From Candidatus Omnitrophota bacterium (GTDB lineage: Bacteria > Omnitrophota > Gorgyraeia > Velamenicoccales > JABMQK01): a DNA stretch of 64,000 bases. A model generated the notes under the pieces. It ran no database searches, had not been told where the DNA came from, and saw nothing but the letters and a program-made list of their open reading frames with translations. Position numbers and translations under genes: made by a program. Shown one piece after another: positions 1-24,400 of this stretch. The stretch spans positions 1,496,928 through 1,560,927 of the forward strand of contig JAQTSV010000001.1 in assembly GCA_028711115.1 (NCBI GenBank), in the 5' to 3' direction. Every line of letters begins with the position of its first letter. Position 1 is the first letter of the stretch.

Positions 1-455
1 GCAACAACTTTTCCTTTATGAATTTTGAATATTCCTTTCTGCCATTCTTCTAAAATGCCACGGGATATGCCGTTACCTTGGTCTTTTATGGAAATTATAA
101 ATTTTCCGCCAGATACGGTAACGCTAACGCGTATTTCAAATTGAGATTCAACCGACTCCATCCTTCCCTGTTTTATTTCTTCATTAAAATATGCGTATAC
201 GGCGTCAATCGAATTAGGAATAATGTGCTGTATCATATCTACAATGACAAAATCTAGGTAAAAATTATTCTTTTGTTCTATTATGCGCATGCAGTATTTA
301 TATAATAGTTCTATTATTTTGCTGTAAGCATAAATATAGGAAGTAACTCTTAATTTACCTTTTATCAAACGATCTATCATCTCGGTTTTGCTGATTGACG
401 GGATAAAATAATAAAATATGGAAAAATCCATAACGAGGTTTTCATCCAAGTCGTT
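1..455 (-). other. Module: GHKL (histidine-kinase/HSP90-type) ATPase-like; its C-terminal end runs off the window
   Basis: Peptide IIPNSIDAVYAYFNEEIKQGRMES...ISIKDQGNGISRGILEEW has an N-box-like NSIDA and a DxGxG motif. It is a clear paralogue of 1494-2111. Upstream junction is SASSPM at 456-473. Confidence 0.5.
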
Positions 456-3400
456 CATCGGCGAGCTGGCGGATTGACTATGTCCATAACTATTTCTAAG
501 CGAACTATTTCGTGCAGCCCTTCTTGCATGCTGCCACTTATGCTCTGCTCCCTCTTGTAATTCTCTAATCCATGCACGTCTGCGGGACTCATATAGATCT
601 CTGCGTATACTATGAACATCTCCTTTAGCGCCTCCAAACACGAATGTTGCATGATCTGTGTAATATTCTTGCATATATTCATATACTTCCTCATCATCGG
701 GAAGACTAACGGCAAAATCTGGATGTAATCTCAATAATGCGTCTACTTCAGCTTTTACCCTTCTTAATTCATTAGCTCCCTCTGCTAAGTCTTCCATAGA
801 TACAGCATGATTCGTAAAACATTCTTCAGTAAAATCAAAATAATTTTCTCTATCCCTTATCATAGAATCCAGAGCCGATTCAACTTCTCTTTCATCTTCT
901 AGGAGGAGTGCAAAAAATAACTCATGTTTCCTGACAAGCAAATGCGTGTGAGCAAAGATTATCGCATGACTTATGCTTGTCAAATGAGCGCGCGCTAAAG
1001 CCTGCTCAAAAACCTCATGAGCAAAACTCGCTTTGCCGAAATATATCCCTTCTTGCGCCTCTCGCCGTGACATCTTCTCTCTGCAATAACAAATTATATC
1101 TGCATTGTCATCATAATAAAGCGCATCACTAGCTTCATCTGGTTTTCTTTCTATAGCGCCTATATGCTGTGCAAATACAAACTTATCTATTGCTCTTAAA
1201 TGCCTTATAGAACCTAATCTAACTATGTTTTCCCAACCAATATCCAATGCCTTCTCCCTTGCCTCTAAACTAAATATTTCAAGCGGTGAGCTGGAAGATT
1301 CAACCCCAGGCCCTTCTGGGAAAGTCCGGAGTTCGAGGGGCGAACTCACGGGCTCAAAGCCTGTATTAATTCGGCTTTGGGTTCCCAAAAGGACCTGGTT
1401 TTTCGCAAAAAGATTCCAGAACCTGCCACGGTAGGTGGAATCTTGCGAAATAAATCTATTTTTTGACATATTGAAATTAATGGGGCTGGAAGAAACATCC
1501 TTTCCTAAATTAATTATTAATCTGACTTCTGTTCCATGCGCGTCTTTGGCAGCATCGGATACATGCAAACTTTTCACTCCTTTTTCATCCTGAGTGAATA
1601 CAGAGCGTTTTCCTTTATGGTAAGTTTCATAGACAACTCTTATCTTGTCTCTATATGCTGGCCATAAGACGTGATCTTTAACCCCTATTCCTGCGCGACC
1701 CAAAGAAACACATCCTTCTTTATGACTTTTGAATTCTCCTCTAACCCAACCTTCGAGAATATCGCAAGATATACCAATGCCTTGGTCTTTTATGGAAATT
1801 ATTACTTGTTCGCCGGAGAGTTCGATGTTTATATCTATTATGAATGTGGTTTCTTCCGATTTCATCCTTCCTTGTTTTATTTCTTCATTAAAATATGCGT
1901 ATGTGGCATCAATCGAATTAGGAAGAATACTGCCTATTATATGTGTTATAACTGATGGCAATTCGTTATAAAGTTGACGCATTCTCAATAACATTTCCAT
2001 TTCTGTTAATACAAGAAAATTTAAATACAATTCGCCGTATTTCAAAGAAGAAACCAATTCTTCTGTGCTTATTAACGGGATATAACGCACGGCTAAGGAG
2101 AAATCATAACGCAGAGGGCTGGAGGAGATAGCGTGTAGCGGATAGCGGATAGCGGATAATTCAGAATCCTGACGGCTCATCCCTGTAGAGACGCCGCCTG
2201 AAATCGGCCAGTCCGAAAGCCCGCTGTTTAATCTTGACGCGGTTAATTGATCTAATATCGGCGAAGATGCGAGTGTCTTTGCAACCTGCGCCACAACCGC
2301 CATATCTTTGACATATACTTTTTTGATTCCGAAGAATCTGGATAGCGAATAGAAATTAATATTGCAACCCCACAATTGTCTTGTATCTGTTAAATGCCTA
2401 AATCCCCACTCTATATATTTTCGTTCATGGTCTTGATTAAAAGGAGTAATTACAAAACGACCTGAAGGACGGAATTTATTGTGTATGGAACAATTTTCCA
2501 ACAGCCTTTGAAAAACCATATTTATACTAAGATCTGTATTAATCATCACAAGATCATTAATAGAATGCTCGGGAAGAAACCACATAAATATTCCTATGTC
2601 GGCCTTAATAAGGCATACGTTTTCTCTGGGATTGGTTTGCGCTTGTAATAGACCGAGATCCCATTGCCGTGCTACGTATTGATATATCGGTCTAAAGCTT
2701 TCCGAAACTTCATCATACAAATCAATTCCGATTACGCCGAACTTTGGTTTCTGCCTGCCTATTTCATAAGCGACTTTGCCTTGGCCGGTCCCTGCTTCGA
2801 TAATAATAAGTTCTTTGGTTTGCAATATACGCATTGCTTTTTTGACATCGCTTTCCTTACCCCTATTCATCTTCATTAAATAATCTTCGAGCTTTTGCCA
2901 GGCTTCCTGCGGCGACTGTGTCTTCGAATCGGAAACCGGCGAGGAGGCTAACCCAGAATGTCTCTTGGTAACTAACACGCTCATATAATTACTTGCATTA
3001 AAGAATGCATCGAGAACTTTCTCAACATCGACATTTCCCAAAACATATGCCAAATCTTTCATGTGGCCCATAATCGCGGAATCACTTCTTATTTGATCCT
3101 CATGGACAAACTGACCGCCGAAATAATGACCGCCATTCAACCATGCTCCCTTGAGATCATTTCTCAGCCAGCCATGTTCGAGCGTACAATCCAGTCCTTT
3201 CCTTATCTCTTGCATCTGTGCTTCATCCTGAGCAACAGCTAAAGCCAAAAGCGCATTTTTTGTTTTTCTGCTTATATCTGAGCAATACACGAATCTTCCT
3301 CCTCCAAATGCCCGCTGGAAAAATTCCTCATGAGAAGTAATCGTAGCTCTCCAGCCTAACGCCCGAGCCACTGACTTTAATAACAAGGCGTTTACAGAAC

Positions 3401-6400
3401 CAGTCACATCTAATGCGATAGGCGCATGCGGTAAGCGATGAACAAAAGAATTCCTAAAATAGTCATATTTGCAAAAACAATCAATAATATAGTAATCAAA
3501 GAAATGCATACAGCCGTAAGGCGAAAGTAAACGCAAAGAATTCTCTAAATGCTTTAGTGCAACTAAATTGACAGGAATATAACATTTACTGACGCCGGAT
3601 AATTTTACATACCTCTTAATTAACCTGCCAAAAGGAAGGAGAGATATATTCGGTATCCGCCTATACTTGAATTCGTATTGAACATTCGCAAATGAAAAAC
3701 GTAAATCAAGTTTCTCAAGCTCTCCGAAATCTTTTTTTCGAAGTGCCTCCACAAAATGCTCTACAGGGACAACTCCACCATCCTTAGTTCTTACATCGCA
3801 GTTCTCTTTGATATATGCCCGCCACCATGCTTCATAGAATTCGCCATCATAGTAAAATAATTCCTGCGCTGGCAAATCATCGTAAAACTCATTAAAACGG
3901 ATAAGCATAGCCGTCCCTTCTTCTATTTCGGGTAGCTGCTCAAGCGCATCTCTCTGTAAAAATACAAGTTGCCCTAAATGTTCTTCGAGGCTGTAATTAG
4001 CACGTGCATCGTCTAACATTTTCTGAGAGAAATCACAAAGGAAATAGCGGATTCGCCTGTAATGCTCGGGATTTAATTCTTTGATTTTGTCCAGAAAATC
4101 ATGCGCAAAATCTCCTTTGCCAATGCCCCATTCGACAACGATGACCTGTTCAGGTAAAAGCCCTTCTATTTCGAGGTACTTTAGATGTTTATCAAATTCG
4201 ATGGCACAGGCTATTGCTGTATGCGGACTTCTGCTTGCCAATGTTATAAAATCACTATTAATCTCGCCACCGCGCAGGCGATAATAAAATCCATTGTTAA
4301 AACTAAATATGCTCTCGTGGTGCGCCGAGCCTTGCATCGGCACAAAATGTTCATCAAGATATACACGTTTTGGCCATCCAGAGACATCGTAACCAGCATG
4401 TTGAAATTCTGGCAATGAAGCATCACTACAATGATCATCTACTCCGCCATTTGGGCCGCTAAACCAATCGGGGTCAATTTGGTATCCCCATAAAAGGTTG
4501 TTTTGCACGTTGTCTATATCTGCATCTTCTTCATCCTGAGCAATAACATTCACCGGCGAGGAGGAGATTCCTGGCTTGTCATCTCCGCCTTCCATAAACA
4601 AAGGCAGCTGCCCAGGTAAAACTAATTGCTGGGTCGGTTGCTCCGGCTCTTTAATATAAGACTTTAGTACCCCGTCATATAATAATTCCGCCCCACTTCT
4701 TCTGATCACCAAGAAAAGACGCCTGTCGCTTTCATCGGTCTCAGGCTCTAAGACCCGTTCCAAAAGAGGATATCTAAGCTTAGCAAACCCAATTTTATAA
4801 AAGAAATCTCTTGCCTGCTTTCCTTCCTGCGCATAATCGCTGTCTTCCGCCGGATGGACTGCAACAATTCCCTTAAGGCCTTCTTTCATCTCGGGATCAT
4901 CTATACTTCTTTCGATTACTCTGGCAACAATGACTTTACCCAAACCGCGGCCTCTGTATATTTCTGAAATCTCCATATAATCTATCATATAAATTTCCAC
5001 CGGAGATTCATCGGCAAACATAAACAGGCCTTTATGATAATATGCAATTCCTAAAATCTGCCCGTCTTCTGAAACCAACTCCACAAGAAATCCCGAGAGA
5101 TAGTTCTCAATTGCACCTTTCCATTTGCTTCTTCTAAAATAATGCTCCCTGCCGGAGCCAAACCATTCGTCCAATATTTCCTGCATCTTTCTTTTGCCGG
5201 TTACTTCCTCCAAATGATAGATAATCTCGCCTGCCTGAAGTAGGCTGTGTTTTATAGTGTTTTTTACCGGCGAGGAGGCGGATGTCGGACTTCTCGGCGC
5301 GGCCGGCAATCTCATATAGAAACGGTATGTAAATCCACCGTTCCCCATATATTCTTGAATGGTTATCTCTTCTGGTATGATGCTCCATTTAAGAGGATCT
5401 AATGAAATACTTGGTTGCGCTGAATCATCAGTCATCTCATCAAATATGAGCCACTTATAATCTTCTAGCCCAAAACCAATTGCCAAAATTTCTAAGAAAT
5501 CCGCAGATTGAACCATCCTGTAAAAATCATCTTCGGTTTCATATGTAGATTCAAGAACTTGCATTAAGTGTCCAATTATTTGCAGGCACCGCCTGGCATC
5601 TGAATCACCCATATCCTTAAATTTGCCTATCTTGATAATTAATATAGGCTCATTGATAACCAATCCATGCTCGGATAACGAACCAATTTGTAATGTTGCT
5701 ATATAGTATCTGCCTTGAGCAAGCTGACTGCCAAAGAGCACATCTAAAAGCTTACTGTTGTGTTCATCGAGCGGTGAAAAATCATAACCATTACGCTGTA
5801 GCAATGGACTAAGGACAACAGCTGTTCTTTTTTCCGGGCGAAAATATAATATATTTTCATGTTCTTCTGGTGATAGCGAATAGAAAAATTCGAATTCCCT
5901 GCCGTAAAGTTCTTCTAATTTTGTTATCGGCGAGGAGGAAGTTTCTTCGGGCGAATTAGAACTACCAGAAGGAATAACCTGCCAGTACTGTGGATTATTA
6001 TTTGAAAGATCCACATAATAATCAACCGGATATTGCTGTGCATACTGGGCGAAACTAGGTACTAACGCCAGTTTATAAAACTTGCCTATACCCTCTGCTA
6101 CATCTGGAGACAATCTACCAATCCTTTGTTCAAACAGGAATGGCGACCGTTCATTTATTATACGATAGCGTAAATCAGAAATAGTACCGCGATTGGCATA
6201 ATTACCTTCAATAACAACTATCATTCTCTTGGTTAAACGGAAAGTACGAGTAGCATAAGTCTTCTGTCTATTATTAAAAGCATTTTCTACGGTAATCATT
6301 ACTTCATCCTCATTAGAACGTTTGAATCTCTCGATTGCTTTGTAAAACTTCAAAATGGCATCCCAATCGAAGAAATCCATATGATCGCAATATGGTTGTC

Positions 6401-9400
6401 CGCTTTCTATTATTTGTGCAGTCATCCTTTTACGCCATTCTCTATCTCTCAAAAACATATCCAGGCCAGGAAGATTACCTTGGTCATCTGACATAATTTC
6501 GTAACCCAAATCACCAAGTCGTTCACATAAAACGCCGCTTACTGCTGTCTTACCTGAACCTGAGATTCCACAAATAGTAACGACAAATGGCTTATGTGTT
6601 TCGGTGGATTTTGATAATTCAATAATCTGCTTACCCATAATCTTCGCAATTGACCCAAAAACAGACCTCTTAAGAGCAGAATATATCGCCAAACATTTTT
6701 TATCCAAAACTCCATCACTCTCAAATGAGAAATGAGAAGTCTTTACATCATTATCTATAAACAACCATTCTGCTTTGCCGCCTATGCCTAATTCAACAAT
6801 AGCATCTGCCGCAAGTTCATCAGATAGTCTCACGGTTTCACTTGAATACATCGGAATATTAACTGTGGCAAGTATCGCATCAATAACATCTTGGCGACTC
6901 GTAAGATACCCCGCATTGTTATTCGATACAATAAGAACTTCGGGATCTCTTACTTGAACATTTCTCTTAATAAAATCACTCACTGCTAATCGGACCTTAG
7001 TCATCCTTCTTGTATGTGAGCTAAATTTATTGTGTGCCTGCAATAAGGTAAACTTAACTTCTGTTTCCTGAAAGCTCTTGGATAGAAAGTCTTGAAAATC
7101 TTGAAATATAGTATTAGCCACAAAAACCTTGCATTGATGATGTGGACTCCCAGAATAATATTTAAATACTTCCACATCTTCAGCAAATCTTTTTCCTAAA
7201 AGACGCAGGGCATCAGAAACGCGAAGCCCTTCCAAAACAAAAACATGATTCTCTTCTTGTTTCAATGATTCCCTCGCAATCTCAGAAAAGATATAGCCTG
7301 CGAGCCTTACTCCATCTGCGACTGATATAGCCCCAGCGGCAACAGCAGAAGTGGTTATGCCAAAACTTTCTCCCGTATAGGCTTTGAATATTAAGGGTAT
7401 GTCTGCTTTTTGTGCTTTTACCTTGAAGTAAATTTCTAATGCCAAATTATGTACCATGAAAGCAGCTGCCAGGAATCCTTTTGCTTCCACTCTATCTCTT
7501 GGAATGTTTTTAGCAGAAAAAAACAGCTTCGTCGGGTCAGGGCGCCCCTCGCTGTCAGTAAGTTTTAATGCTTCGGCTGCTAACGTATAAAGCGATTGTA
7601 TTTGTGGTATGCCTGTATCATATAAAGAACTCCCTGATTCTCTATAATAATCTATACTGCCAAAACTTGGGAAAAGTCCGATAAATTGAAGTTGGATATC
7701 GCCACTTCTTATACTCTGTGATTTTGCCACCGGAGAAGAGGAGCGGTTGCGCGGCGCGGCCGGCAATCTCATATAAAAACGATGCATAAGTCCGCCGTTA
7801 GCTACACATTTTTGGATATCTACCTCTTGGGGTACAATATTCCATTTAAGAGGATTTAAGAAAATATTTATTTCCAGTGAATCATCCATCATTCCGTCAA
7901 ATATAAGCCACTTTTCGACTTCCAGCGCAGAATCAATCGCCAAAACTTCTAAGAAATCTGCAGATTGAACAATTCTGTCAAAATCATCTTCGGATGCATA
8001 TCCAAGGGTTTGCCTCAAGTGTTCAATTACGTCCGGACCAACGTCTGAATAAAACAGTTCCTCGAGATTGCTTATCTTGATAATTAATATGGGCTCATTG
8101 ATGATTAATCTACGTCCGAGCAAGGAACCGCGCTGTAACGTTGCTATATAATATCTGCCCTGGGCGAGCCGGCTTCCGAAAAGGACGTCTAAAAGCTGGC
8201 TGTTTTGCTCATCGAGCGGCAAGAAACCATGGTAATTGAGTTGTAATAATGTGCTAAATACGACCGCTGTTCTTTGCGCCCGGCTAAAATATAATGTATT
8301 TTCATACGCTGTTGGCTCCATAGAATAGAAAAATTCGAATTCCCTGCCGTAAAGGTCTTCTAATTTTGTTATCGGCGAGGAGGATGCTGAGGAAATAATG
8401 CTCTCGCATTCTTGTGATGTAGATAACAACAAATCCCTAACTTCGGCAACTATGCCGGTATTTTTAGAACGCCAGTTAATTACTCTGTTTCTGAAAGAAT
8501 GCGCCATACTTAATCTTATGTCTTCATATTCAGCCAGAATTGAATTGTCCAAAATCATTTTTAAATCTCTTCTTCCTCTTTCTTCCCATAACTTGGCTAA
8601 CCGGGACTCTGTTTCAGAAACTTTCGCTCCTGCCTTTACGCGATAATAGCTTAAAATAGCAGAATGCAGATACTGGATAACTCTGGCGATTTGCTCAATC
8701 TCATATATATCTACAAAAGCGTACTCCAGACGCACATAATCAATGCCTCTCAAAGGAATAACGGTTCCTTTTTTGCTTCTGATTAAAACAACTTTTTCTG
8801 TCTTTTTTATCTGCGCCCTGTTATCGCTCACAAACGCTATAACTATGGCAAACATCAACAAACGCGCATATTTGATAAATCCCTGGGCTGATAACTTATC
8901 CCAAACTCGTTTAGGAACTCCAATATTTATTTGAACAGAAACCATATCTTCATCCGAAATTTTCATTGCTTTCCTTAATTGCTCCAATATATATAACTGC
9001 GTCCTAAAGCTCCAAGACGGCCTGAATTTAAACTCCGGCAAACTATAATCATCCCCCTCATATGAATAATCATCGAATTCAAAAGGTATTGATTTGATAG
9101 CTTTGCGACTTCTTGCATCCAATTTGCCGTCTCCAATGATTGATAAATATATATCTTCGTAGTAATCCCATAATAATTCCACCTCAAACCCGACCGGCGC
9201 ACCTAATACTGACTCGCAGGACTCAAAGCCGCGTATAATCCTTGGTTCTCCGAAACGTACCGCGTCCTGCGCACCCGGCAACAAATCGCTCACTGGCGAG
9301 CTGGAGGCTTTAGTCGGAGAAACAGGACTGTCTGAATCAGAAATAACTCCGGAGGGCAGGCTAAAGAATTTCTGCTTCATCTTCTCGATTGTCGCTGAAC

Positions 9401-12400
9401 CAATTCCATCAACTCTTTTCTGTAAATCTTCCCAGGATTTAAATGCGCCATTGCTTCTTCTTTCTATTATTATTTTCTTTGCTAAAAATAAAACATCTCT
9501 TATCCTTAAAAGAAACAGACAACCGCAAATTTCCTTGCAATCCATTTCATTAAGATTTTTGGGCTTCTGAAACACCAAACTTTCTGCTTTCTCAGCGCAA
9601 TATTCAGCTATTGCCCTGCTTCTGCCTTTCCTATAGAAGAATTTTCTCGGAATCTCGACAAGCGCCAAAACTTTGAGCAGCCCCCTCTTGGCATTTATTT
9701 TCTGCAGCAAATCAAATTCCGCCTGCTCGTAGCTATTCCAACTACCGCTGTTAAAATGCCTTGCGATTTGTCCCTCTGAAACATAACCCACCACTCCTAA
9801 TGCGTAGTAATATCTTCCTGTGGAGGGATTTTGTATAACTTCTAAAATATAAGAAGGAATGTCGTATTCTTGTTTTACCCTAAGGGACATCTTTAAATCT
9901 GCTTCATTAACTCTAAGGTAAGTGTCTCTTCGCCCATAACTCTTACCATTAAACAAGGGATGAGTAAGCAAGGGATGGATATGCCCTCTGCCGAGTATAA
10001 ACTCCTGCTCGCCCCTTAAAAAGAATGCCACAAGATGTATAAGACTACATGCACAAGTATTGGAGCCTCTTTTTTCTGAAGGGGCTACATACAACTTAAA
10101 TGTTTTATCTGACTTAGAATAGGTAAGCACAAAACCGTATTCTTTTACGGGATCTCCTAAAATTTCTATTGCCTCTAATAAAACTGACGCCATATCTTTA
10201 TATTGCGGTTTAGCCGTGCCTGATAAGAAAGACGCATGCAGCGAGCCCGGTATCAGGCCTCCGGCGTCTATAATACTTAACACCGGCAATTCTAAATCCG
10301 GGATACTCTTTGATGTAACCAAAACCAAATCTATCCCTTTCGTCTCGATATATCGGGCCTTTATTTCGCCTTCGCCTATCGGTATCCTGACGAATCCGTG
10401 GTTATTGCCTTTGTTGTTATTATTTATACATCTGACCGGCGAGCTGGAGATAATCTGCGCTAATGGCACCAATTTCTGTTCTATCACCATTTGGTTTAAT
10501 GAGGACTCTAATTTCTGGAAAATAAGGTCTTGTGGTTTTGCTGTGTAACTTGATGTCGGGGAAAGAGATTTTTGTGGCTTAGCGACAAAACTTAACCTCG
10601 CCTCCTGGCCGATGAGATCATTGCCTCTTAAAACCGGCTGGCGTACATACATAACCTCAACCTCGTGCTCCGCTGCTCGCTCGACATTTAGAAGGCCTAT
10701 ATGGCTGCAAGTCCATGATTCATATCTTGAGCTAAGGCGCTGGATAATATCTTCTCTGGTAATCGGTTTACCGTCGACTCCTTCGTCATACACAGAAACT
10801 AATCCTTTATCAAAATTCCATGCCACCGCTATCATTCTATTGTTTCGCAGCCGATTACCGTGAATAATAGCATTTGTTATCATCTCATGGGTAATTCTCT
10901 GTACATAGATTAGCATTCCTCCTTCAGGGCGCCTTAGTTGTGCAAGCATACTGGCAATTTTTTTGGAAATTCTAATTGGATCGTATGGTTGTACAGCCCT
11001 TAAGAATTTTACACAATCAGGAATATATACGGCGCCGCGGTTCCTTAACTGCGCGGAATTAACGAAACTATAGAAATCTTCCGCGCTTCGCAAAGTAAAA
11101 ATATTTCCCGCGAAATTGCGTTCTATTTCTCTGCGCAATTCCACTCCTCTGTTTAGGCCTTTTTCAACTCTTGAGCGCGGATATACCTGGCGCTTAGGCA
11201 GTATTTCAGGACCCATCATAACCAAAGCAGATTGAGAAGAAACTTTTCTGCCGTTTCTGTAGCCTGCACGCGGATGCCCTGCCACCGGCGAGGAGGAGCG
11301 AAGCGGACTACTCATCGTGCCAAAAGAGGTAAATTCCTTTAACCTTAAAATCGCTGCTTCAAATTTTCCTTTCACACCGCTAGTGAGGACTTGCTTATCC
11401 TCTTGAAAACTCATTTCTATTTCCTGAACCAACCCCGACAGACCCTGCTTTACAGAATCCAATTTCCCTAAATCAACCTCGCCTGTTTTCACGCGGTTAA
11501 TCCTTATTTCCCGAATTTCTCTTATTCTATCCCTAAGCCTATATTCAAATTGACTTATCAATTCGTGCTTAGAGTAAAATTGACGATTGTTAATTATTGC
11601 AATTAATAGCATGACGTCTGCTTCTGCTGTGATTAAGATTCTCAACTCAGGAAAATCATGGAAAATCTGTTCGGCTGTCTTTCTTTCTTCTACGCTTTTC
11701 TTAATTTCATTTGTAGTAAAACCAAATCTGCCGATTATGGTGCAAAGAGTACATGGCTCTCTAGTTATAAATACATTTCTACTTTTTATTCCTGCTATCC
11801 CACCGAGAATTTCTTCTGTTAAGCCTAAATACGGGTAAATCTCATGAAGCTTAGACTGAATACCAGGCATGTCTTCGTCTTCTATTAATTCCATCTGCAT
11901 CGCTCTTTCTTGCGCCATCCCCAGGGCTCCCCATATACTATTTAATTCTTCCGGTGCAAATGCTGTTTCTCCGGATAATTTTCTGTACAAACAGTCCTCG
12001 CTCATTCCTAATCTGCTGCAAAATTCTTTTATAGAAAATCCTGCCAATGCGGTAACCTGGCGTAATCTTGTTTTGTCTATCGGCGAGGAGGATGTTTTGC
12101 GGCTTAAAGCAACCGCTTTCCCGGAGCTAAAAAATAAAATGCCCGGTGTAGCAAGGGGCGATGAGGCAGAAGCCGCTGCCAAACGCTCAACCTCAACAAA
12201 GATACTCTGAAGCGGCTCTTCCTCGTCATAATGAATCGCCCTAAATCTCTCTGTTGAGGATGGAATCCAATCCAAAGAAGATTCTGTAGTAATAACTACT
12301 GAAGGAATATTCAAAAGATAACCAATATGGGCGATAGAGGTGTCCATAGTAACTATACAATTTATCTTTCGTAAGAGCTCAATGGTTGCTGCCCTATTCT

Positions 12401-15400
12401 TCCAGTTTTCTTTTAACTCTGTTCTCCAGAATAATACCTGCGAAGATATCTCTGAGGACATTCTATATTGTATTGATTTGATATAGCTCCTCTCCCACGA
12501 ATATCCATTATCATTGACTATTACTGTATAACCTTTTTTCGCCAAGCCTTCTATAATTCCGACCCAATCTATTTTATCAATATAATGCTTATTAATATTT
12601 CCTAAAGGATTGAGGAATACACATTTTTTATTTTCTGCACCATGATCAGACAACCAAGTGTGCGCTTCTATTGATGGTGTATCATCTAGGCTAGGCGTTA
12701 ATAAAACAACTTCTTCATTAGGTACTATAAATCCTTTTCTGCGCAACGCCTCTCTGGCTGCCTGGCGATATACATAGCCTTGCGATAATAAATGTTTTAT
12801 ATCTGACCTAAGATCTAAAATATTTTTACCTATTAGGCATCTTGCAGATAGATTTATTACTAAATCGTAACTATCGGAAGAAGGATCTATATCCTCTGCC
12901 TTTTCTTCTAGAAAAACAACTCTTTCATCAACGCGCAACTCTTGATAAGAATCGAGATTAACTGGCTTAATCCTGTTATTAACTGTTCGTACGTTTGAAA
13001 GGGGACAAAGAGCATGCACTGCTAATTTGCCTTCCTCTCTTGAAGCCAGGCGAGGAAAACTATCCAAGCAGGCCCTGATGGTCACGGGGACAAGGCATAG
13101 CGCCATGCCCCAGGAAGCATTTCCCATATGAATAAGAACTTTTCTGGTGTTAGAAAAATCTATCTCCACCGGTGATGATGCGGCGCTCATTGTCGTTATA
13201 ATTAATTTTTCGCGCCTTATTTTCTTCGATTTTCCTGAATGCGGCAAATCTTGCGGCCTGGCTATGGTAAACGTTTCGTTCTTTGACCTTACTAAAACAA
13301 ATTCCTCATAGCTTGCGGTTTTTAACCCGGAACCTTCCATCGCAAACAGCATTGGCCTTTCCTGGCTTTCTGTTATGTAAACAGCGCAGAGCGCTTTAGG
13401 ATTATCTTGCCTTAGAAATGCTGCCGCTTCTTTTATAAATCTGGTTAAAGTCCTGTAATCCGGATCATAAAATGCGTAATCCAATTGGGAAACACCGAAA
13501 TGTTCCTGCGGTTTATTAAACCATGGTGGTGCGAATATAATTTTATCGAATAAATTCCTGTTATCCCTCAACGGATCAAATAAATCTCCTTCCAAAAGGT
13601 TTGACGGAAACCCAAAGCGCCTGAAATTTATCCTGGCAAGCGTTAGCGCCTCGGAATTTATATCCGTGCTTACAACATCACCCGCGCCTAATTGATACGA
13701 CCTTATGCCTAAGATTCCGGTGCCTGTGCCCATATCCAAAACCCTGTCGCCGGGCTCGATTATATTTTCCAGCTTCCAGGCGAATAATTCTCCCATTTCA
13801 GCGCAGTAGTGGTGCGGATCCAAAGCGTGCGGGCCAACCTGAATTTTCCCTCCCAGAACAGGAATATATTTTTTCTGCCAAGAGTGGGAAACAATTAAAG
13901 GAGAGGAAGTTTTCAAAATTAGGCTCTCCCCTGTCATTTCTTTGGGCTGCTGTTCGTTTATAACGCCCATAATATTCAACATATGAATCATTGTGGGCGC
14001 GACATCGCTTAAACCGCCGCCTTGGCGTAAGGAAATCTTTCCTAAACGAGCTGCCGGATCAACGACAAAACACGGAACCGGCGCAGTGCTATGGGATGTA
14101 TCTTCTTTACTGACTTTTTCTGCGTTGCCGTGGTCAGCAATACCCAATATAACGCCGCCGATTTCTTTATTGGCGTCCTTTAATATTCCAAAACATTTAT
14201 CTACCGCGGCAATGGCCTTTATGGTAGCCGGAATACTTCCGGTATGACCTACCATATCGAGATTTGATATATTAAGGATAATAACATCATACTCTCCGGA
14301 GAGCATCCGCTCTTTAATCTGTTCGGTAAGTTCGTACACGGACATTTCGGGTTTCAAATCAAAGGTTGCCACATTAGGCAAATCAACACATATAGTATCT
14401 TCACCCGGGAATTGTATATTTCTTCCGCCGTCAAAGAAAAAGTGCACATGAGGATATTTGGTAGTATCAGAACCGCGCAACTGCTTAAGCCCTAATTTAG
14501 AAATAAATTCACCGAATGTATTGGTCAATATTTGTCCCACAAATGCCACCGATAAATTTTTAAAGGCATCGAACTTTTCATCATACACTGTCATCGTAAC
14601 CCATTTGACCTTTGGTCTTACCTTACGCTCAAAACCTATAAAATTATCATCCATAAATGCCTCTGTTAACTGTATACCTCGTTCATTGCGATGGTTGACA
14701 AAAATCACCACATCATCATCGTGAATTACACATTCTTCGCCGATGAGCGTAGTAGGTATGATAAATTCATCCGTATCTTTATTTGTTTCCTTATCGTAAA
14801 AATATTCCAATACCTCTACAGGATCGTCTGTTTGTGCTCTATTTCCTTTTGCCTGAGTGAGCAAGTCATACATTACCTGTGTCCTATCCTTCCAGAATTT
14901 ATCTCTATCCATAGTATAGTATCTACCGCTGAGTGTCGCAATTATACCAATTAATATTTGCCGTATCTTTTCCTTTAATAAACGCATCCTCTTTGCTCCA
15001 TCTGTAGGCGGCGAATCACGCCCGTCGGTAATAGCGTGAATCAACACTTTGTCTTTATCAATGCCTTCTTTCTTGGCTAATTCCAAAAGGGCATAGAGAT
15101 GCTCATCGGATCCATGCACGACTGCGCGGCTGACAAGGCTTATGAGATGAACTTTGCTGCCTTTTTCTTTTGCAAAACGCATTGCTTCTACTAATGCCGG
15201 ATTTTTAAAGAATGACCCATCTTCGATTGCCCTATTTATCAACACCAAATTTTGCAGCGGTTTTGTGCCTGTGCCGATTGTCTTATGCCCGTCATTAGAA
15301 TTACCCATCGCGCCCTTGGGAAGCCCGACTGCTTCGCCCGATGCCTGCAGTGTAGTAAAAGGCTGACCTTTCATTACGCTGTCGAGATTGGGTGTGAGGC

Positions 15401-18400
15401 CTTGCTTGCTCGCTAAGTAAATAGGATTATCTTCGGCTTCTGGCCCTATTCCCATACCGTCGAATATGGCTAAAAGAAGTGTCGGCTTTCTAGATTTTGT
15501 TACTGGTGAAGAAGCTACTCCGTTGGCATCGGCTCGCTCAATCTTTCCTTTTGCCACAATAAGCGAGCCTTCGCGCAAACCACTTTCAATAACACTATTA
15601 AAATATAATTCAATATCATCCTGGCCGGCTACTGCATCGACAGGTAACATCTCTAATCCCAGGCGCTTCAGTTCAGAATTCAAAACTTTCGATATTGCCT
15701 GATACATATTACGCATAAATATTTCTGCTACTTGCAATTTACCGTGATCAAGAAGAACCGTACAATAACGAAGAGGCGTGTAGCCTGTCCCTGATTTAAG
15801 AATTCTTTGTATCTGGCGGCCAACAGCATACTCAGATAGCTCTTTGTCGGTAAAATATTCATCGAGATTTTTAAGATAGGTTAGCATTTGTAAGACGCGC
15901 GTTGCTTTATGTATCACCTCACGATTAGTGATAGAACCTTTTTTGGTATTTTTATCGAGCCTTACGTGGGCAGTTAGACCTGTTTTTTCTACTTCTACTT
16001 CAGTTATAAGCTCTAAGAGTTTAATGACAAAATCTAATCGACCTTGATGCACAGAGACAACTCCTTTATCAGTTACTTCAGTAGCACCCTCAAATTCCGC
16101 GAAATCGACCTCGACCTTTCGGTCGGCGGGAGTTATGTCGACAAAAACTTTGGCTGTATGAACCCCTAAGTCAACAAAGAACCACGCTTTTGTCCCGGCA
16201 AATATAGTGTACATATTTGTGCCTCTAAGTTTAGGTTGAATAAGGGCCACTTTAGAAGCAATCTCTCTTCCCACTGAAAATTCGCGACTAATGGTATCTT
16301 CTAAATCGATAACACGCACGTGCTCTGCATATGGAATTTCCGTCTTATCTTCATCGACTATAATACTTAAAAGACGGCCGGATATATGCCCAAGTTCCTG
16401 GCGCATCTTCAACCAATCACCTCCTATGGCCTGACGGAACACCCCAAAAATACCTTCCAAGATTTCCCTGTGTATGGAATTAACGAAGTGATTTAATCTG
16501 TCGCGACTTACATCGGACTGAATTTTTTGTAATTCTTCAAATTCTTTTGCATACTTACTCTCAATGCCCGCCATCTTTTCATGCTGAGCAAGCATTTCTC
16601 TAATAATATCAAAGATATTATTATAATTTAATGTATCTGCTCCGATAAGCCGAAGCACTTGAGAATTTAATTCACAGAATGCAATAAAATTAGCCACCCA
16701 ACCTTTTATTTTTGCTAAAGTTTCAACGGATGAATCTTCGACTACAACAGGTTGATAGGCCGTAAGGCAGCGTGTTAGTCTCGTAGTGCATCTTAGACTT
16801 TGTAACTCTGAAGAAATATCGTCTATAAGATAAGCCGGAAGATGAACAGGAGAAATATCTTCGGGGTCAGTAATAATATCCGTATATCGTAAAGTAGAAA
16901 TTATATCATTTGGCTTAACTGAAACAGTTTTGCCTCCCACATACAAAAACGTACCTAATTTAGAAAGTTGGATTAATATACTAACTTCTTTTTTAATCCT
17001 CTCTGCCAATTCCTGGGCGCGGGCGATAGTTTCTGCATTGAGTTTTTTATTTGCGGCAATTTCAGCCTTGCATTTCTCGGTATTATCGCTAAGTGCCTGG
17101 AGGTATGCAAAATCCCCCTCATTGGCAGCGCCTTCTAATATATCTTTTGTGGCGTCGCTTAATATATCATTGATTGTTTCATAAGAATTGTATGTTGATT
17201 CGGCTAAGACTGCTTCAGTGTGGGTTAATCCTTCAATGTGTTCGAGGAGTTCATGAATAATAAGCTGGGCAATAATATGCGGATATTTTTTGCCTGCTCT
17301 ATCGTAGTAAGCCTGCGTAATATTTATATGCAAAATAAGTTCGTTATTTTCTATAGTATATGTTGTGATTACGGGTATCGGCCTTCCGGACGATTTTGTA
17401 ATAAATCCTTGCGGCGTACCATAAGGAATGAGATTAACGCGGAACTGTTTAATGCGGGGGTTTTCTATTTCTTGTTTATCGATAATGACGTTTCTTTTTA
17501 CATCTACTTCCTCTGCGGCAAACAACCTTAAGATATTTGCAGGCGGGCCCTGAGGAATAATAATAGAGCCGACTAAATAGCTGATGATTTCGCTGTTTAA
17601 GGCAACTTCGCGTCCTTGGGCGCGGATAATCTGATTGATGTCAGCTACCAGTATATCTATTTCTCCCCGGACAATATCTCTGCCAATGGGTTTCTTGGCA
17701 TCAATTCCATATTGCCTGTTTGGTGTAATCGGCGAAGAGGATTTCTTGGGAAAAGCAGAAACCACTGACGATTTTAATGTAGGATCAAACCCTCTCACAT
17801 CCATCATTCCTATTCTAACTAATTCATCATCAGAGTAAGCCCTGTTAGTTGTTGAATTTCTTAAGAAATCCTTTATGGTAAAAGATTTATCAAGTTTACC
17901 TCTTAACCCACAGCCATATATATTAGCAAGGTCATCGGTAAGCAGGACATAGCCGTATTTTAATAGATGTATAATTGCCTGCCACTGGCTACCTGTCTGT
18001 CCTGTTATAGTCTTAATAATATGGCCAGGATATCCTATTTCATTCTTACCTTGTTTTTCTTTATTAAAAAACTGTATGAATGTCGGATCAACCAGATAAT
18101 GCTGTTTTCCATCGCTTACTACGACAAATGCATGTTGTTCTCCCTTAAATATTTCTTTGGCCTGGTGTGTTCTAATCTTTATATTCATACCCGATAAGCA
18201 GGTAATGCTAATTAAAAACTCTAGGCTTCTGACAATGTATGACTGTGCCTCACCGCAATAATCCTCAAGACTTTCAGCAGAAAAGATAGAATGTTTTCCA
18301 AGATTAGCATTTAAAGAAGCATCTTGTTTTGCTAGAGAATCTCGAAAAGCCGTTCTAAAATCTGCTACTGCTTGTTTAATAATATCCTCAAGGCTAACTA

Positions 18401-21400
18401 CCTTTTCAACACGAATCTTAGAAGTTGTGACTAAGAATGGTATTGTGTAGCCTTTTCTTTTAACTAATTCCTCAGTGTAAATATTAGGAGAATTCCTTAT
18501 GGCGCTCGGCAACCGCATTAATATAGTATCCCAACTGGTTTCCTCTCTAAATTTTTCGACTATCCAGTCCATCCAGCGCTGGTTGGCTTCCACGCCAAAA
18601 CCACCGGATAGAGCGCCAAGGTCTTCTCTTTCGCCTACGGATAAGAGCGTTATACCTTTTATGTTACGCAGCATATTATCATTGCCGCCTTCAAAGAGTT
18701 CGTTTCCGCAGAAGAGTATTGATTCTGGATTAAGGTTGTAGGTTTTGATGAAGTGCCTGGCTGAGCGTTCCTTGTCATTGCCGATTAAGACGAACTTTAT
18801 GCCTCTGGCACCCGGGAATGGTATGTTTATGCCGGCCTTGCCAAGATCTGAGAGGCTGTTGTTTTCCAAGAGGCGTTTCTTGGCGTATTCGATAAGGGCT
18901 TTGCGTACTCTCTTTGCCTTGTCTGTCTTGTAGGGTTCTGCCGAGGTATCTCCTAACATCATCCAGCTGGTTGAGCCGCCTCTAAAGTAGGTCTCGGAGA
19001 TGTCTTCGAATCCTTCTTGAACTAAGATCTTCTTCATCTCACCAAGGATACCTTGTTCTATATTGATAGGATTAATGCCTTGAGGTAAGGAAGAGTTATG
19101 TCTTTCCAGGAATTCTGTGCCTTCTTGTATGCGTTTAGCGATACGCTCATCTTCTAAGTTGTCTGTCTTGTATATGGCTGCCAGGGACTTTGCGTATTCG
19201 ATGCTTCCGATGACTGCAATGGCCTGGGCATCACTGAACAAACAGGCAAATTCCTTATCATAAGTCCACTTGCCTTCCTGGAAGTCATAGTAGTAGCGGT
19301 GGCTGCCGTCTCCGCCATAGAACATGACGTGAGTTAGGACATCTTTGGGCAACCTGTAGAGTATGCGTTTACCGAGTTTTTCAATGGCAACACCGCTCAT
19401 GGGTATCCAGGCAAGGTTATAACCCTTTAATATACGGATAAATTTGGCTAAACCTTTAATCCATTCATCGGTCGGAGAATAACCTGATTCAAGTACAGTA
19501 TCATCTATGTCAGTAAGTATGGCGCCGGTAAAGGCTGGATGGGTTATGGGGGAGGAAGAAATTGTAATATTCTTCCCCCAGGCAAACTGAACTCTGTATG
19601 GATCTCTGGTTAAATCCGGAGCAAATTCTATCCATGCTAAATCTAAAATAGCCTTATTAAGAATAAAATCTGAAATTCCGCTTAAACGATAACCTAAACG
19701 CCACGGCGCAACAGCATACACAGAAAATGCGTGGCCCGGATTAAAATGCTGCCATAATCTTAGTTGGGTTACTGCCGGTGTAATTAAAATAGTTTTTATT
19801 CCTTGCTGGCGCGCGTAATCTTCCAAAACCAAAAGCAACATTCTAACCCAATCTTTATATCGCTCTCGTAGATTAGGACCTAATCTTCTAAAGATATCCG
19901 ATTGGATATTGGTCGCGACAATCATATCGCCAATAATGCGAAATTCGACATACCCGAATGCGCCAGGCTTATGCCCCGAATACAAATCTTTGTAATGATC
20001 TTTCTTGCGTATAATCTTCAAATCCTCGTCAAGCGGAGATAAAACCAGTGCCAGGCGTTCATCGCGAGAGCCGCGTTCTTCAGGCAAAACGCTAAAACAG
20101 CCGCCAAAGAAATTTACATCGCCTTGCTTTTGTGCGCTTATTGTTTCCTGATAAAAACGGCTCCTAAACCAATCCTCATTTTTCATAAATGCCTCGGCAA
20201 CAGAACCGACATATCCCGACGCAATATCCCACTGCGTGAGTAACTTACGAACAATATTTTGATTGGTTCTTTGAACTGCAAACGCTACATCTCTAATATA
20301 CTCACTGGGAATACCCCACTCAAATATCAATTTTTCAACCATTTCTTTACCAACTGCTTGCACAGCTAAAGCGACACGCACCAGGCGCGATTCAGGTATT
20401 TTATATTTACTTTGCAATTCTTGGATAACATCTGCCCCTGCGATCTTACTTGCTTGGGCGGTTTCGGACTCCGAAGAAGATTTTCCTCCAACAAGAGGCC
20501 CTTTTCTTTCTTCGGACGGATATAATGCACAGGCAGCTTCAGCAATGCTAATTTTATTACTAATAATATAATCAACTGCTTCATCATTAAGGCCGGCAAG
20601 AGCAATAATTAACTCGCTTTCTTGTTCGGTATAGCCCGCCTGTATCAATCTGGCGCGCAGTTTAACAATATGTTCTATCGGACTGGAGGATAATTCATCT
20701 GCTTTTCCCGGCATCATCTTTAATATGTCATTCCACTTGGTTCCCTGTTGCAATTGTTCAATTATCCAATCCATCCAGCGCTGGTTGGCTTCTACGCCAA
20801 AACCTCCGTGTATGGCGCCCGGGTCTTCTCTTTCACCAACGGATAAGAGCGTAACGCCAGGAATATTTCTTAACATATTGTCATTTCCGCCTTCAAAGAG
20901 TTCGTTGCCGGCAAACAGCACTGACTCAGGTTTAATACCAAAATGTTTAAGCAGGTGGCGCGCAGAGCGTTCTTTATCATTTCCGATTAAGACGAATTTA
21001 ATTCCTCTGGCGCCAAAGAACGGTAGGCTAATACCTACTTTACCTAAATCTGAGAGGTCATTATGTTCTTTCAGGCGTTTGCCGGCATAATCAAAGAGTT
21101 CTTTTCTGGTATCTACTGCGTGAGGCTTCTGGTATGGTTCTGCAGCAATATCACCAAGCATCATCCAGCTCACTGAACCGCCTCTGAAATAAGTCTTGGC
21201 ATCTTCAGGTTTAAAACCGCGCAACTTTAAAATTTCCTTCATCTCACCTAATATGCCAATTTCAGGATTAATAAGTTTAATACCTTCAGCCAATCCAGCA
21301 TTATGTTTTTCGATAATAGTAAGGGCTTCTTGTATAGCTTCGGTGACACGAGAGTCATTTACATCTTCTATTTTTAATATCTTGGCAAGTGCCTTGGCAT

Positions 21401-24400
21401 ATGCCTTTACGCCGATAACAGCAATGCCCTGTGCATGGCTGAAAATACTGGCAAATGATGGATCAGAAACCCACTGCTTGGTCTTAAAGTCATAGTAGTA
21501 GCGGTGGCTGCCGTCTCCGCCGTAGAACATTACATGAGTTAAAACATCTTCAGCTAATTCGGCTAACCTATATAAAATACGTGGGCCAAGTTTCTCAATG
21601 GCAACACCGCTGACCGGTATCCAGGCGATTTTGTGTTTCTTTAAAATGCGGATAAATTTGGCCAATCCTTCAATCCATTCATCGCTGGGCGTGACTCCTG
21701 ATTCAACTGCTGTATCATCGATGTCGGTAAGCCAGACGCCATCCAACTTTACCACACCAAGCTCTCTTATTCTTCTCTTAAAATCAGCCTGTACACTATC
21801 CCTGACAGGGTCTTCCACGGGGAGGCCGCGGTCTGCGTAAGGGTCATTGATGCGCGCCAGGGCAGTATTAATGGATTCTTCCAGGCTACGTATATTATCA
21901 ATAACTAAAGTTTCAGTGAGACCTGCCATCTCAACCAACCGGTCGTGACTCTGCCTTATGGTTACAAATTTAGCCTGGTAACGGCCTGCTCCGCCTCGGG
22001 CTTCTCTTCCGGCATAGCGTAAGAAATGTTCCTCCTCATTACTGATGCTGGAGATAATCCAGACGATGTTCGCCTTTTCAAAATACTCCTCAGGCAACAG
22101 CCCTGGGATAAGCGGCACACCTTCGATAACTGCGGATGTTCCTTCCTTGATAAGCCTGTCTAAGGCAGCCATGACATTAACCATGGTCATAATGGAATGT
22201 TCATAGTACCACTCCAATTCAGGCTTATTAAAAGAAGAACCGAATACTTCAGGGAAGGCTTTTTTGGCGCGGTCTTTGCCCAAAAGCCAAATTGACGTCT
22301 TTCTAAAACCTTCTCTGGCACCCACGTCAGTGGAGAAACATGTTGGAATAGATAATCTCTTGGCAATGTGAGAAGCTATTTTAGACTTGCCTGCGCCAGA
22401 AGCTCCAGCAACAAGTATAATGGTGGGACGGGTAAGGCTTTTTACTTTTTTAACAGGATAAAGTTTCAAAAATAGCAAGCGCACGAAATAATAAAACTCG
22501 TCCTGTGAAATCTGGCTGAGCACTTTACCGGGTATATCAGGATATTCATAGAAAGATTTTTTAGCCCATTCTTCTGTACTCCACCATTTCTCCAGAAAAC
22601 CGTAGTAATCCTTTATCAATTTATCAACGCTATCCTCCCATGTTGATAAAGTCCGGCGCACATCTTGCACTTCATAAGACTTAAGCACATCTTCAGGCGG
22701 AAGCTTAACAATGAGACGTTCTAATGAGGCCTTTAAATCATCCAGAGTTTTATCATCGGCAAAAGCCTTCTCAACCAATGTAGATGCTATGCCATAGCGC
22801 TTCACTAAAACATCGCACAATTTCTCACGTGCCTCAGAAAAGAGAGTGCGTTTTAAATCTTGCCTTAATATTTCTAAATCGCGGACCTTAGCCCTATCCA
22901 TAGTCCTGATAGCTTTATACGCCTGACGACGTGCCGTATCATAATTAGAGCCCCTAAGGACAGCGAGCCTTCCCAAGAGCTCACAGTGCATACGCCTTAT
23001 CTGGCTAAGATACAAACTTATTTTCCCCAAGGTATTACTGTTATCCTGTAAAATCGCATGAATAACATCGCTGGGTATATCTCTGGCGGCAGCAATAAAT
23101 CTTTGCACTTGTTCTTGCAGAAATTGTTCTCTCTGGGTTTTGTCGGTTAATTCCTCGGGTGGTTCTATGCGTAACAATGCAGCGAGGCTTTTTGTATCTT
23201 TTGCAAGGAACCTATTAATTTCTTCCTGAACCCGTTCTACGCCTGGATGTTTACCATTGGTAACTGGGCTGCTGGAACCATTTTTGCCTTCTTCTTCATC
23301 CTGAATATAAATCACCAATTCTTCCCGTCTGCGGTCCAAATCAGCATTTACACTATCCCTGACAGGGTCTTTCACAGGGAGGCCGCGGTCTGCAAAAGCA
23401 TCGCTAACGCGCTCCAAGGCAGTGTTAATGGATTCTTCCTTGCTACGTATATTATCAATAACTAAAGTTTCAGTGAGGCCTGCCATTTCAACCAACCGGT
23501 CGTGACTCTGCCTTATGGTTACAAATTTAGCCTGGTAACGGCCTGCTCCGCCGCGGGCTTCCCTTCCGGCATAGCGCTCATAGTGTTTATCCGGATCGCT
23601 GACGCTGGAGACAATCCAGACGATGTTTGCCTTTTCAAAATACTCCTCAGGCAACAGCCCTGGGATAAGCGGCACACCTTCGATAACTGCAGAGGTTCCT
23701 TCTTGGATAAGCCTATCGATAGCGGCCATGACATTAATCATGGTCAGAATGGAGTGGCCGTAGTACCATTCCATGTCTGGCCTGTCGAATGAAGAACCGA
23801 ATACTTCAGGGAAGGTTTTTTTGGCGTGGTCTTCGCCGAGAAATAAAGAGAAAACCTTGCGGACTGCTTCGCGGGCACCAGCATCAGTAGAAAAACGGGT
23901 AGAGATGGATAACCTGCTTGAAACAAGTACCGATATGGTACTTTTGCCTGTGCCTGAAGCACCAGCAATTAAAACTACAGTGGGACGACTAAGATCCTTA
24001 AGGCGCGGGACATGATGAAAGCGCGGGAACAACCACTTAATAAGATCATGTAATTCTTCTATTGTAACTTGCTGGCGTATTTCTTCAGAAACAGAAGAAT
24101 CATTATAGAGCAATTCCATTTCATCTTTTCTGAAATCATCCCAAGCAGTAAGCAAAGAGGCATATCTTTCTATCAATTCATTAATTCCATCCTCCCAGCC
24201 ACGGATGATAACATCGCACCTAAGCTGCTCTATTTTTCTTTCTCCTTTCTTTACCGCTTTATTGATAATTCTTTGGGTAGCTTCTTTAAGTTTTACCAGC
24301 GTATCGGCATCTTTAAGCTGGCTTACTACAAATAGCTCGGAAACATTGCAATCCTCAACAAAGAATTTGCTGAGTACCGCTTTTAATTCCGGCAATAAAA

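Follow-up and report, generated by a model that had tools for sequence, protein, structure and literature searches.

Structured, in-frame repeats between the module junctions of a giant bacterial gene

Results

Four copies of a structured element lie within one giant reading frame

Our study concerns a 64-kb stretch of DNA (the window), which is occupied over its whole length by a single giant gene, and a family of structured repeats (the element) carried in the linkers of that gene. On the minus strand, positions 3-63998 make up one reading frame with 0 stops in 21,332 codons and both ends open, and the five remaining frames of the window contain 706-1,707 stops each; since the frame runs past both window edges, the gene comprises at least 21,332 codons. 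Its product is a mosaic of unrelated enzyme-like modules, which are parted by 65 S-S-P motifs, nearly all of the form [S/A]-S-S-P-[I/L/V] (for example at 5925-5944, 39796-39815 and 44311-44330); these motifs are referred to here as junctions. The element is present as three close copies (e1, e2 and e3; roughly 180 nt) and a divergent fourth (e4), in a range of about 160-200 nt, and each of the four copies fills one junction-to-junction slot between an upstream (J1) and a downstream (J3) junction. A preliminary description of this DNA had placed element segments between junctions at 1281/1479, 45102/45321 and 50877/51045, and these coordinates are exact on the minus-strand frame. The features are as follows.

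3..63998, minus strand: host open reading frame (ORF), 21,332 codons; enzyme-like modules parted by SSSP[I/L/V] junctions
1281..1493, minus strand: e1, from J1 to J3, the segment flagged in the preliminary description (213 bases)
1479..1493, minus strand: J1 of e1, upstream junction, TCT TCC AGC CCC ATT = S-S-S-P-I
1452..1460, minus strand: single-stranded 5' motif AAUAGAUUU of e1; AUAGAUUU is invariant in four of four copies
1401..1450, minus strand: hairpin A of e1; three stems (6, 9 and 3 bp) and, on the 3' side, two bulges of 3 nt each
1425-1432, minus strand: apical 8-nt loop of e1 hairpin A, ACCGUGGC
1306..1398, minus strand: domain B of e1; a 17-bp helix (CCAGGUCCUUUUGGGAA / UUUCCCAGAAGGGCCUGG) closes a three-way junction, and its 3' strand encodes E-G-P-G
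1356..1378, minus strand: hairpin B1 of e1, loop GAAUUAAUACA; absent in e3
1326..1351, minus strand: hairpin B2 of e1, read V-S-S-P-L-E; AGGGG loop on the plus strand
1336-1340, minus strand: invariant CCCCU loop of e1 hairpin B2
1281..1295, minus strand: J3 of e1, downstream junction, TCC AGC TCA CCG CTT = S-S-S-P-L; nucleotides conserved in e1-e3
45102..45335, minus strand: e2; J1 at 45321-45335, J3 at 45102-45116
50877..51059, minus strand: e3; J1 at 51045-51059, J3 at 50877-50891; without B1; hairpin A in a different frame, restored by indels
55626..55826, minus strand: e4, divergent; J1 at 55812-55826, J3 at 55626-55640

The copies form a family at the nucleotide level. The invariant blocks GGGTTCCCAAAAGGACCTGG and ACCTGCCACGGTAGG occur three times each, against 0.00 and 0.05 expected; the signature ACCGTGGC is found exactly four times in the window, once per copy and always on the sense strand (0.54 expected), and the same holds for the octamer ACCGUGGC (four in the window, one per element, always sense; 0.54 expected). 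The three close copies share the peptide ...NQVLLGT... in addition to the junction motifs. The fourth copy contains AAUAGAUUU, a hairpin that has ACCGUGGC as its cap (55756-55763) and a three-way junction that includes a C-rich loop, and neither the internal SSPL nor the GPG is present in it; a covariance model built from e1 and e2 recovers e4 at a borderline 13.3 bits. Apart from one pair near e2 and e3, the modules that flank the four copies are non-homologous, so that a multi-copy family is found here in unrelated contexts.

The J3 of e1-e3 is an exact copy of the junction consensus (TCCAGCTCGCCG), and the B2 hairpin of e2 contains CAGCTCGCCCCT, which matches this consensus at 11 of 12 positions. 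All four J3 read SSSPL, with Leu at 19 of the 65 junctions overall. As each copy sits in its own junction slot in the same way as each protein module, the bracketing SSSP[I/L/V] motifs are ordinary module delimiters and nothing special to the element.

The elements fold on the sense strand

In a window-wide scan of GC-regressed minimum free energy in 120-nt windows, the elements are the strongest-folded windows of the whole 64 kb. The z-scores are -6.55 (sense) and -4.67 (antisense) for e1 and -3.4 (sense) and +0.2 (antisense) for e4; by these measures the element is stably structured well beyond composition expectation. The sense strand is the more stable in every copy, by 2-10 kcal/mol, and the helices of the sense strand include G·U pairs, which become A·C mismatches on the plus strand. 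The sense (mRNA-like) strand is the folding strand. The AGGGG hairpin loop noted earlier on the plus strand was recovered in all three close copies; given the sense-strand fold, the relevant loop is its counterpart on the mRNA-like strand, CCCCU, and not AGGGG itself.

The conserved fold consists of the 5' AUAGAUUU, a long bulged hairpin (hairpin A) capped by ACCGUGGC, and a long helix closing a junction with a C-rich-loop hairpin. Hairpin A has in all copies an 8-nt apical loop, an apical stem of 3-4 bp, a bulge of 2-3 nt on the 3' side and a lower stem of 7-13 bp, and this architecture is kept in e4 by stems of quite another sequence. In an alignment of e1-e3 guided by the structure, standard pairs fill 94.4% of pair cells, and 11 of the 51 pairs are changed on both sides; none of 500 shuffles reaches this number, and slid registers give 0-4 double-changed pairs.

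Two further hairpins recall hairpin A. One belongs to a distantly related giant gene of a different metagenome (locus L005, P0148; 10899-10996). It has the same three-stem, two-bulge layout, a similar middle stem (GGAAUUCCU) and the loop AUUAA; the covariance model gives it 26 bits (E about 4e-6), its z is -4.1, and it lies within coding sequence, ~110 nt upstream of a junction. The other (37060-37110, minus strand) is a perfect 12-bp hairpin, GUAUUCGCAAAC / GUUUGCGAAUAC, within an alpha-amylase-like module of the window (z = -3.6), with a stem similar to the outer one of hairpin A (UUUCGCAA / UUGCGAAA); it may be a solo remnant or a chance likeness.

Searches for known RNAs and signals were negative. 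Rfam 15 returned 0 matches at gathering score across the window and noise only around e1 and e4 (E at least 0.2, far below gathering score), ARAGORN returned no tRNA or tmRNA, and no hammerhead-like or other ribozyme core was recognisable. An intrinsic terminator or promoter was rejected, with no signal above shuffled expectation. Programmed -1 frameshifting was considered for e1, in which A_AAA_AAU is followed by a 7-nt spacer, hairpin A and a UAG in the -1 frame, and was rejected because the slippery heptamer is absent in e2, e3 and e4. The template and variable repeats of a diversity-generating retroelement were likewise dismissed, as the substitutions are not adenine-specific. Pairing of the hairpin-A apex with junction sequences gave a duplex only about 0.5 standard deviations above composition-matched shuffles, and the pairing of J3 with a hairpin-A strand proposed by RNAalifold involves invariant columns only and competes with the covarying hairpin A; neither was retained.

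The elements are read in frame, but the peptide is not selected

All copies are inserted in the coding frame without breaking it: together they span 257 codons, stop-free in the host frame, in a gene whose off-frames contain ~7.5% stops. Within the copies, a single stop-free sense frame is common to all, and all three antisense frames contain stops. In e1 and e2 the most conserved block, CCTACCGTGGCAGGT, gives T-Y-R-G-R; in e3, where a one-base insertion and a five-base deletion shift and then restore the frame, it gives P-T-V-A-G. Between e1 and e2, 26 of 178 positions differ (11, 7 and 8 at codon positions 1, 2 and 3), with no third-position excess, and this divergence is uneven, with 2 differences in the first 80 nt and 24 in the last 98 nt (Fisher p = 2e-5). 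The constraint is at the level of nucleotides and structure, and the peptide itself is unselected.

The short peptides to which attention had been drawn fit the same pattern. An S-S-P-L had been read in one phase in all three close copies, as VSSPLE, VSSPLE and LSLPLK; these readings stand, except that the third copy has S-L-P-L and not S-S-P-L. The shared phase is forced by reading-frame survival, since there is one shared stop-free frame. The S-S-P-L corresponds to UCG followed by CCC-CUC, that is, to the end of a stem and its loop: P-L is the loop, and the Ser before it is encoded by the final codon of the stem. This codon is UUG (Leu) in e3 instead of UCG, a change matched on the other side of the helix in a compensated C-G to U-A replacement, so that what is kept is the pairing and not the Ser; in e4 a different C-rich loop is read G-T-T-P-A. 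The G-P-G, also correctly reported as encoded in the elements, is the translation of GGGCCUGG, the 3' strand of the 17-bp helix, and three of the four G-P-G in the 21,332 codons lie within elements. Both S-S-P-L and G-P-G are by-products of the fold.

The module junction is a nucleotide-level motif

The junctions have the nucleotide consensus TCC-TCC/AGC-TCG-CCG-[A/G/C]T, and their synonymous sites are conserved. The first Ser is encoded by TCC in 33 of 43 Ser codons (77%, vs 13% elsewhere), TCC and AGC are favoured at the second, the third is TCG at 40 of 65 junctions (62%, vs 9% elsewhere), and the Pro is CCG at 40 of 65 (vs 28% elsewhere), with p from 1e-8 to 1e-26 for these biases; after the Pro, ATA, GTG or CTN is preferred. 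The SS and SP dipeptides outside junctions use ordinary codons in the same gene. Information by position around the junctions is limited to -3..+10 nt. Every occurrence of the motif is in frame 0 of the sense strand; the other frames, the antisense strand and the ordinary genes nearby are free of it.

The same consensus delimits the modules of the independent giant gene at L005, which are only ~25% identical to those of the host: among its 21 junctions (1751-15164), 13 read TCCAGCTCGCC, and TCG is used at 16 of the 21, vs 10% globally. The junction is a nucleotide-level motif, and more than a peptide; its synonymous-site conservation, within and between genomes, implies a nucleotide-level process. 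This suggests a process that acts on nucleic acid where modules meet, be it recombination, RNA processing or codon-specific translation control, beyond what a linker peptide or a protease site would entail.

Once the four elements are set aside, the sense strand is less structured, and the antisense strand more so, in windows up to 100 nt from a junction than elsewhere in the gene (p about 1e-5); this pattern may be a composition effect of the pyrimidine-rich motif. A general enrichment of RNA structure at junctions was dropped as an idea, the sense strand showing the opposite.

Ordinary junctions carry no vestige of the element

According to the preliminary description, the element might be the ancestral or active form of the joint, in which case vestiges of it should persist at ordinary junctions, and a profile comparison of junction flanks had been proposed beforehand as the check. 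We compared an element-core profile with 55 ordinary junctions, plus or minus 100 nt and with the junction's own 15 nt masked. A single one of the 55 matched (0.3 bits), as did 7 of 600 non-junction control sites (maximum 2.3 bits; Mann-Whitney p = 0.34). In whole-window searches with nhmmer --max and with the unfiltered covariance model, ordinary junctions matched via a junction tail of 15-20 nt only (at most 12 bits, E at least 0.1). The internal S-S-P-L is moreover not kept as a junction, being S-L-P-L in e3 and G-T-T-P-A in e4.

With the profile, nhmmer and covariance searches all negative, the idea that junctions are vestiges of the element is contradicted on the terms set for it in advance. 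The alternative offered alongside it, that the element is merely tolerated at linkers, fits the four copies, each in its own junction-to-junction slot. The suggestion of a mechanistic link between the junction peptide and the element holds in part: the junction is indeed a nucleotide-level motif, of which the J3 of e1-e3 is an exact consensus copy, but the vestiges are missing. Taken as a whole, the earlier interpretation is partly supported.

Modules duplicate as junction-bounded units

Duplicated modules in the host gene are discrete, junction-bounded units. The latest duplication (52180-53560 vs 54262-55640) comprises one whole module, with 90% amino acid and up to 96% nucleotide identity; its 5' boundary coincides exactly with TCCTCCTCGCCCCTG, the J3 of e4, and e4 itself is not included. 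Older duplicates, at aa 4373-4662 / 6561-6845 and 18542-18756 / 19357-19577, are likewise discrete and junction-bounded, and are non-adjacent. Downstream of e3 a module X follows directly; downstream of e2 there is an HATPase module and then X', with 60% identity to X, an arrangement that looks like the insertion of a module at the junction.

A second repeat family occupies short junction-to-junction slots, at 2123-2267 and 55823-55982 of the window. It encodes ...TASRLNSGLSDWPI[S/T]GG... (WPI[T/S]GG) and is ~90% identical in nucleotides to positions 3110-3290 of L004, a contig of an Omnitrophota metagenome-assembled genome (MAG), with surrounding modules that have no detectable similarity; it does not fold significantly (z from -1.1 to +0.6). 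From the discrete, junction-bounded duplications and the repeats in slots, it follows that the element behaves as another module of the array, with folded nucleic acid as its cargo.

The end of this second family carries an in-frame tandem heptamer of 3-4 units at 2127-2156 of the window (TAGCGGA x3 on the plus strand; TATCCGC on the sense strand), which is found in diverged form at about 3230-3265 of L004.

The host is a mosaic of enzyme families

The product of the host gene matches more than 20 Pfam families at or above the curated cut-off, including iPGM, PPDK_N, nitroreductase, amino-acid kinase, RNHCP and radical SAM, and further three HATPase_c, sigma-70 region 4, several methyltransferases, zeta toxin and GNAT; the window thus holds many distinct enzyme families strung together in one ORF of great length. 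The full-length iPGM module (aa 16165-16700) has a junction on either side, and reaches a best identity of 50% to stand-alone proteins of about 503-505 aa. A protein search found no iPGM module in other giant proteins, and a query with the HATPase and X modules was likewise without a match. The single close public match is a spacer repeat of 55 aa (roughly 110 nt) in a partial protein, MDD5618454.1, annotated as from a Candidatus Omnitrophota MAG; the window itself contains no marker gene.

The host is probably a 'multi-enzyme' giant gene of Candidatus Omnitrophota. The 'multi-enzyme metabolic' giant proteins described for Omnitrophota (bioRxiv 10.64898/2026.06.07.730766; 10.1101/2023.11.21.568195) also combine many unrelated Pfam families in one polypeptide, and the host families that fit the description include HATPase_c, methyltransferases, GNAT and radical SAM. 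The sections of these papers that were read differ from our findings in that they describe neither a junction motif nor embedded structured repeats, and a term search of the papers gave no occurrence of 'linker', 'junction', 'motif' or 'polyprotein'; cleavage of giant proteins into smaller products is put forward there as a hypothesis only.

Discussion

Bacterial genes as large as tens to hundreds of kilobases were discovered only recently, and little is understood of their assembly, expression and processing. Our analysis indicates that the linkers of such a gene can hold structured repeats that are translated but are not protein features, which is a warning to annotators who equate conserved stretches with protein. 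We propose that the element may well be a cassette-like, in-frame structured repeat, selfish or near-neutral, of the same kind as the Rickettsia palindromic elements. On this proposal, the recombination from junction to junction by which protein modules are duplicated would also have copied it from linker to linker, and it would be tolerated there because it lies between domains, with junction motifs on both sides that may insulate it. Ribosomes must read through it, and it is kept in frame and stop-free; any activity would be exerted as RNA structure in the giant mRNA. Both its mobility and its function are what we infer here. If true, a cassette reading would explain the growth of multi-enzyme giant genes.

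Several observations weigh against this proposal. An inverted-repeat scan of the four copies returned internal hairpins only, with no terminal inverted repeats common to the copies. The J1 and J3 of each close copy share 9 nt (e1), 6 nt (e2) and 10 nt (e3), which corresponds to the generic junction consensus; as these repeats are indistinguishable from that consensus, a target-site duplication is ambiguous. All copies are seen inside the one giant gene, the data being those of the 64-kb window. Scanning GTDB genomes, JGI metagenomes and IMG/VR for exact 20-mers gave chance matches only, with no other element features, a combined-signature scan of IMG/VR gave no match, and a profile of the element peptide had no match among 5.8 billion proteins. 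The covariation is drawn from 3-4 sequences only, in an alignment fitted to the model. Finally, the long-term retention of the fold, seen in the compensatory changes, in e4 and in a hairpin A that is almost the same in e1 and e2, synonymous sites included, argues for function over neutral junk.

This last point leads to the possible, if somewhat doubtful, explanation that the element acts in cis as an RNA structure of the giant mRNA and is selected by the host, having been copied to those linkers where it is useful as a processing site, an exonuclease barrier, an aid to transcript processivity or a pause in translation between modules. The fold on the sense strand, the compensatory changes together with the uneven constraint, and the invariance of the loops ACCGUGGC and CCCCU are all consistent with such a role, as are the rank of the elements as strongest folds of the 64 kb and the persistence of the architecture in e4, with a like hairpin in the distant L005. 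However, of about 45 linkers just 4 carry the element, and the sense strand at ordinary junctions has, if anything, less structure than in the rest of the gene. The distance from the structure to J1 ranges over 24-53 nt and that to J3 is also variable, which leaves no fixed pausing geometry; terminator-like and promoter-like signals do not exceed chance, Rfam has no match, and the cutting of an mRNA without stops and starts would yield non-stop fragments. We consider it improbable that the element is instead the ancestral or active junction, with SSSP[I/L/V] motifs as the scars left by its loss, or that it supplies the junction sequence. The conservation of synonymous sites at junctions, which extends to another genome, would be explained in this way, as would the exact TCCAGCTCGCCG of the J3 in e1-e3, the 11/12 consensus match in B2 of e2 and the four SSSPL among four J3. 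Against it stand the lack of any element vestige at the 55 ordinary junctions or elsewhere in the window, the confinement of nucleotide information to -3/+10, and an internal junction-like motif that is S-L-P-L in e3 and absent in e4; L005, furthermore, has 21 junctions of the same consensus and only the one hairpin of the element family.

A functional plus strand, as an antisense small-RNA gene or a DNA-level site with an active AGGGG loop, is very improbable. Although the antisense fold of e1 is significant in itself (z = -4.67) and the AGGGG loop would resemble a Shine-Dalgarno-like sequence, the antisense strand is weaker in all copies by the 2-10 kcal/mol given above, e4 is no better than shuffled sequence on that strand (z = +0.2), pairs that are G·U on the sense strand would be A·C mismatches here, and promoter-like and terminator-like sites are no more frequent than in shuffled sequence. 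Least credible of all is a conserved linker peptide, that is, a protein-level module whose nucleotide identity reflects recent duplication. Such a peptide would account for the ...NQVLLGT... and the junction motifs common to e1-e3, but the most conserved block is read in two frames, and the frame change in e3 effectively refutes it; there is no third-position excess, compensatory pairs are present, e4 keeps the fold and loses the peptide, and the profile is without a match in 5.8 billion proteins.

The comparison with known repeats concerns kind and not descent. The Rickettsia palindromic elements (RPEs) are described as selfish palindromic repeats inserted in frame within protein-coding genes (Ogata et al. 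2000, reviewed in PMC10969869). They share with our element a dispersed family of ~100-200 nt, stable secondary structure, in-frame insertion with translation, and location at sites tolerated by the protein. They belong to another lineage, and the likeness is one of kind and not family membership; homology to the RPE-1 to RPE-10 families of Rickettsia is unlikely because the phylum is different and there is no Rfam match. Unlike the RPEs, all copies here lie in one giant gene, exactly between two conserved junctions, and the element carries the nucleotide consensus of the module delimiter. In addition, RPEs are described as encoding a conserved peptide, whereas the peptide here is unconserved and read in two frames.

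Other bacterial repeats are more remote. The transposable elements of the miniature inverted-repeat type (MITEs; Correia/NEMIS, ERIC) and REP/BIME sequences, for which RNase III cleavage and changes in mRNA stability are known effects (PMC10969869), are also short, structured, multi-copy and co-transcribed with host genes. In contrast to MITEs, our element is without shared terminal inverted repeats, and is intragenic and translated rather than intergenic; MITEs and REP form one long hairpin, and the element a hairpin plus a three-way junction. The attC arrays of integrons offer a different parallel, with unrelated cargo units bounded by a short core, a folded nucleic-acid element between units, and discrete duplication and movement of cassettes. 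The units here are, however, fused in one frame, the delimiter is ~13 nt and translated, and the element is found at 4 of about 45 boundaries. While attC has inverse R''/R' cores and one imperfect hairpin with extrahelical bases, the element has direct-repeat ends and a hairpin with a three-way junction, and is thus not an attC site. No integrase was seen in the window, and the likeness to integrons is a resemblance only.

The more surprising, collateral result of this work is that the module delimiter of a giant gene is conserved at synonymous sites within and between genomes. An unlikely extension would treat the SSSP[I/L/V] junction as primarily a ~13-nt nucleotide site (UCC-UCC/AGC-UCG-CCG) for DNA recombination or RNA processing, and the giant gene as an in-frame cassette array built and reshuffled there; the elements would then be non-protein cassettes or folded cis partners of that machinery, with junction cores at their 3' end and in B2. 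If true, this would constitute a new assembly route for giant multi-enzyme genes. Other public giant proteins (same query) have different recurring delimiters, K-[A/S]-S-S-A-G in P0168 and D-K-A-M-[L/M] in P0136, P0159 and P0121, which suggests that short, lineage-specific delimiters are a general feature of giant genes.

The hydrophobic residue that follows S-S-S-P sits at the position of the initiator Met of the stand-alone homologue; in the iPGM module (aa 16165, about 15503 of the window), for instance, the junction is followed by V-TKSR-KPTLLLAIFDGMG. At 41 of the 65 junctions, the codon after SSSP is ATG or one substitution away from it (ATA, GTG, CTG, ATT, ATC or TTG).

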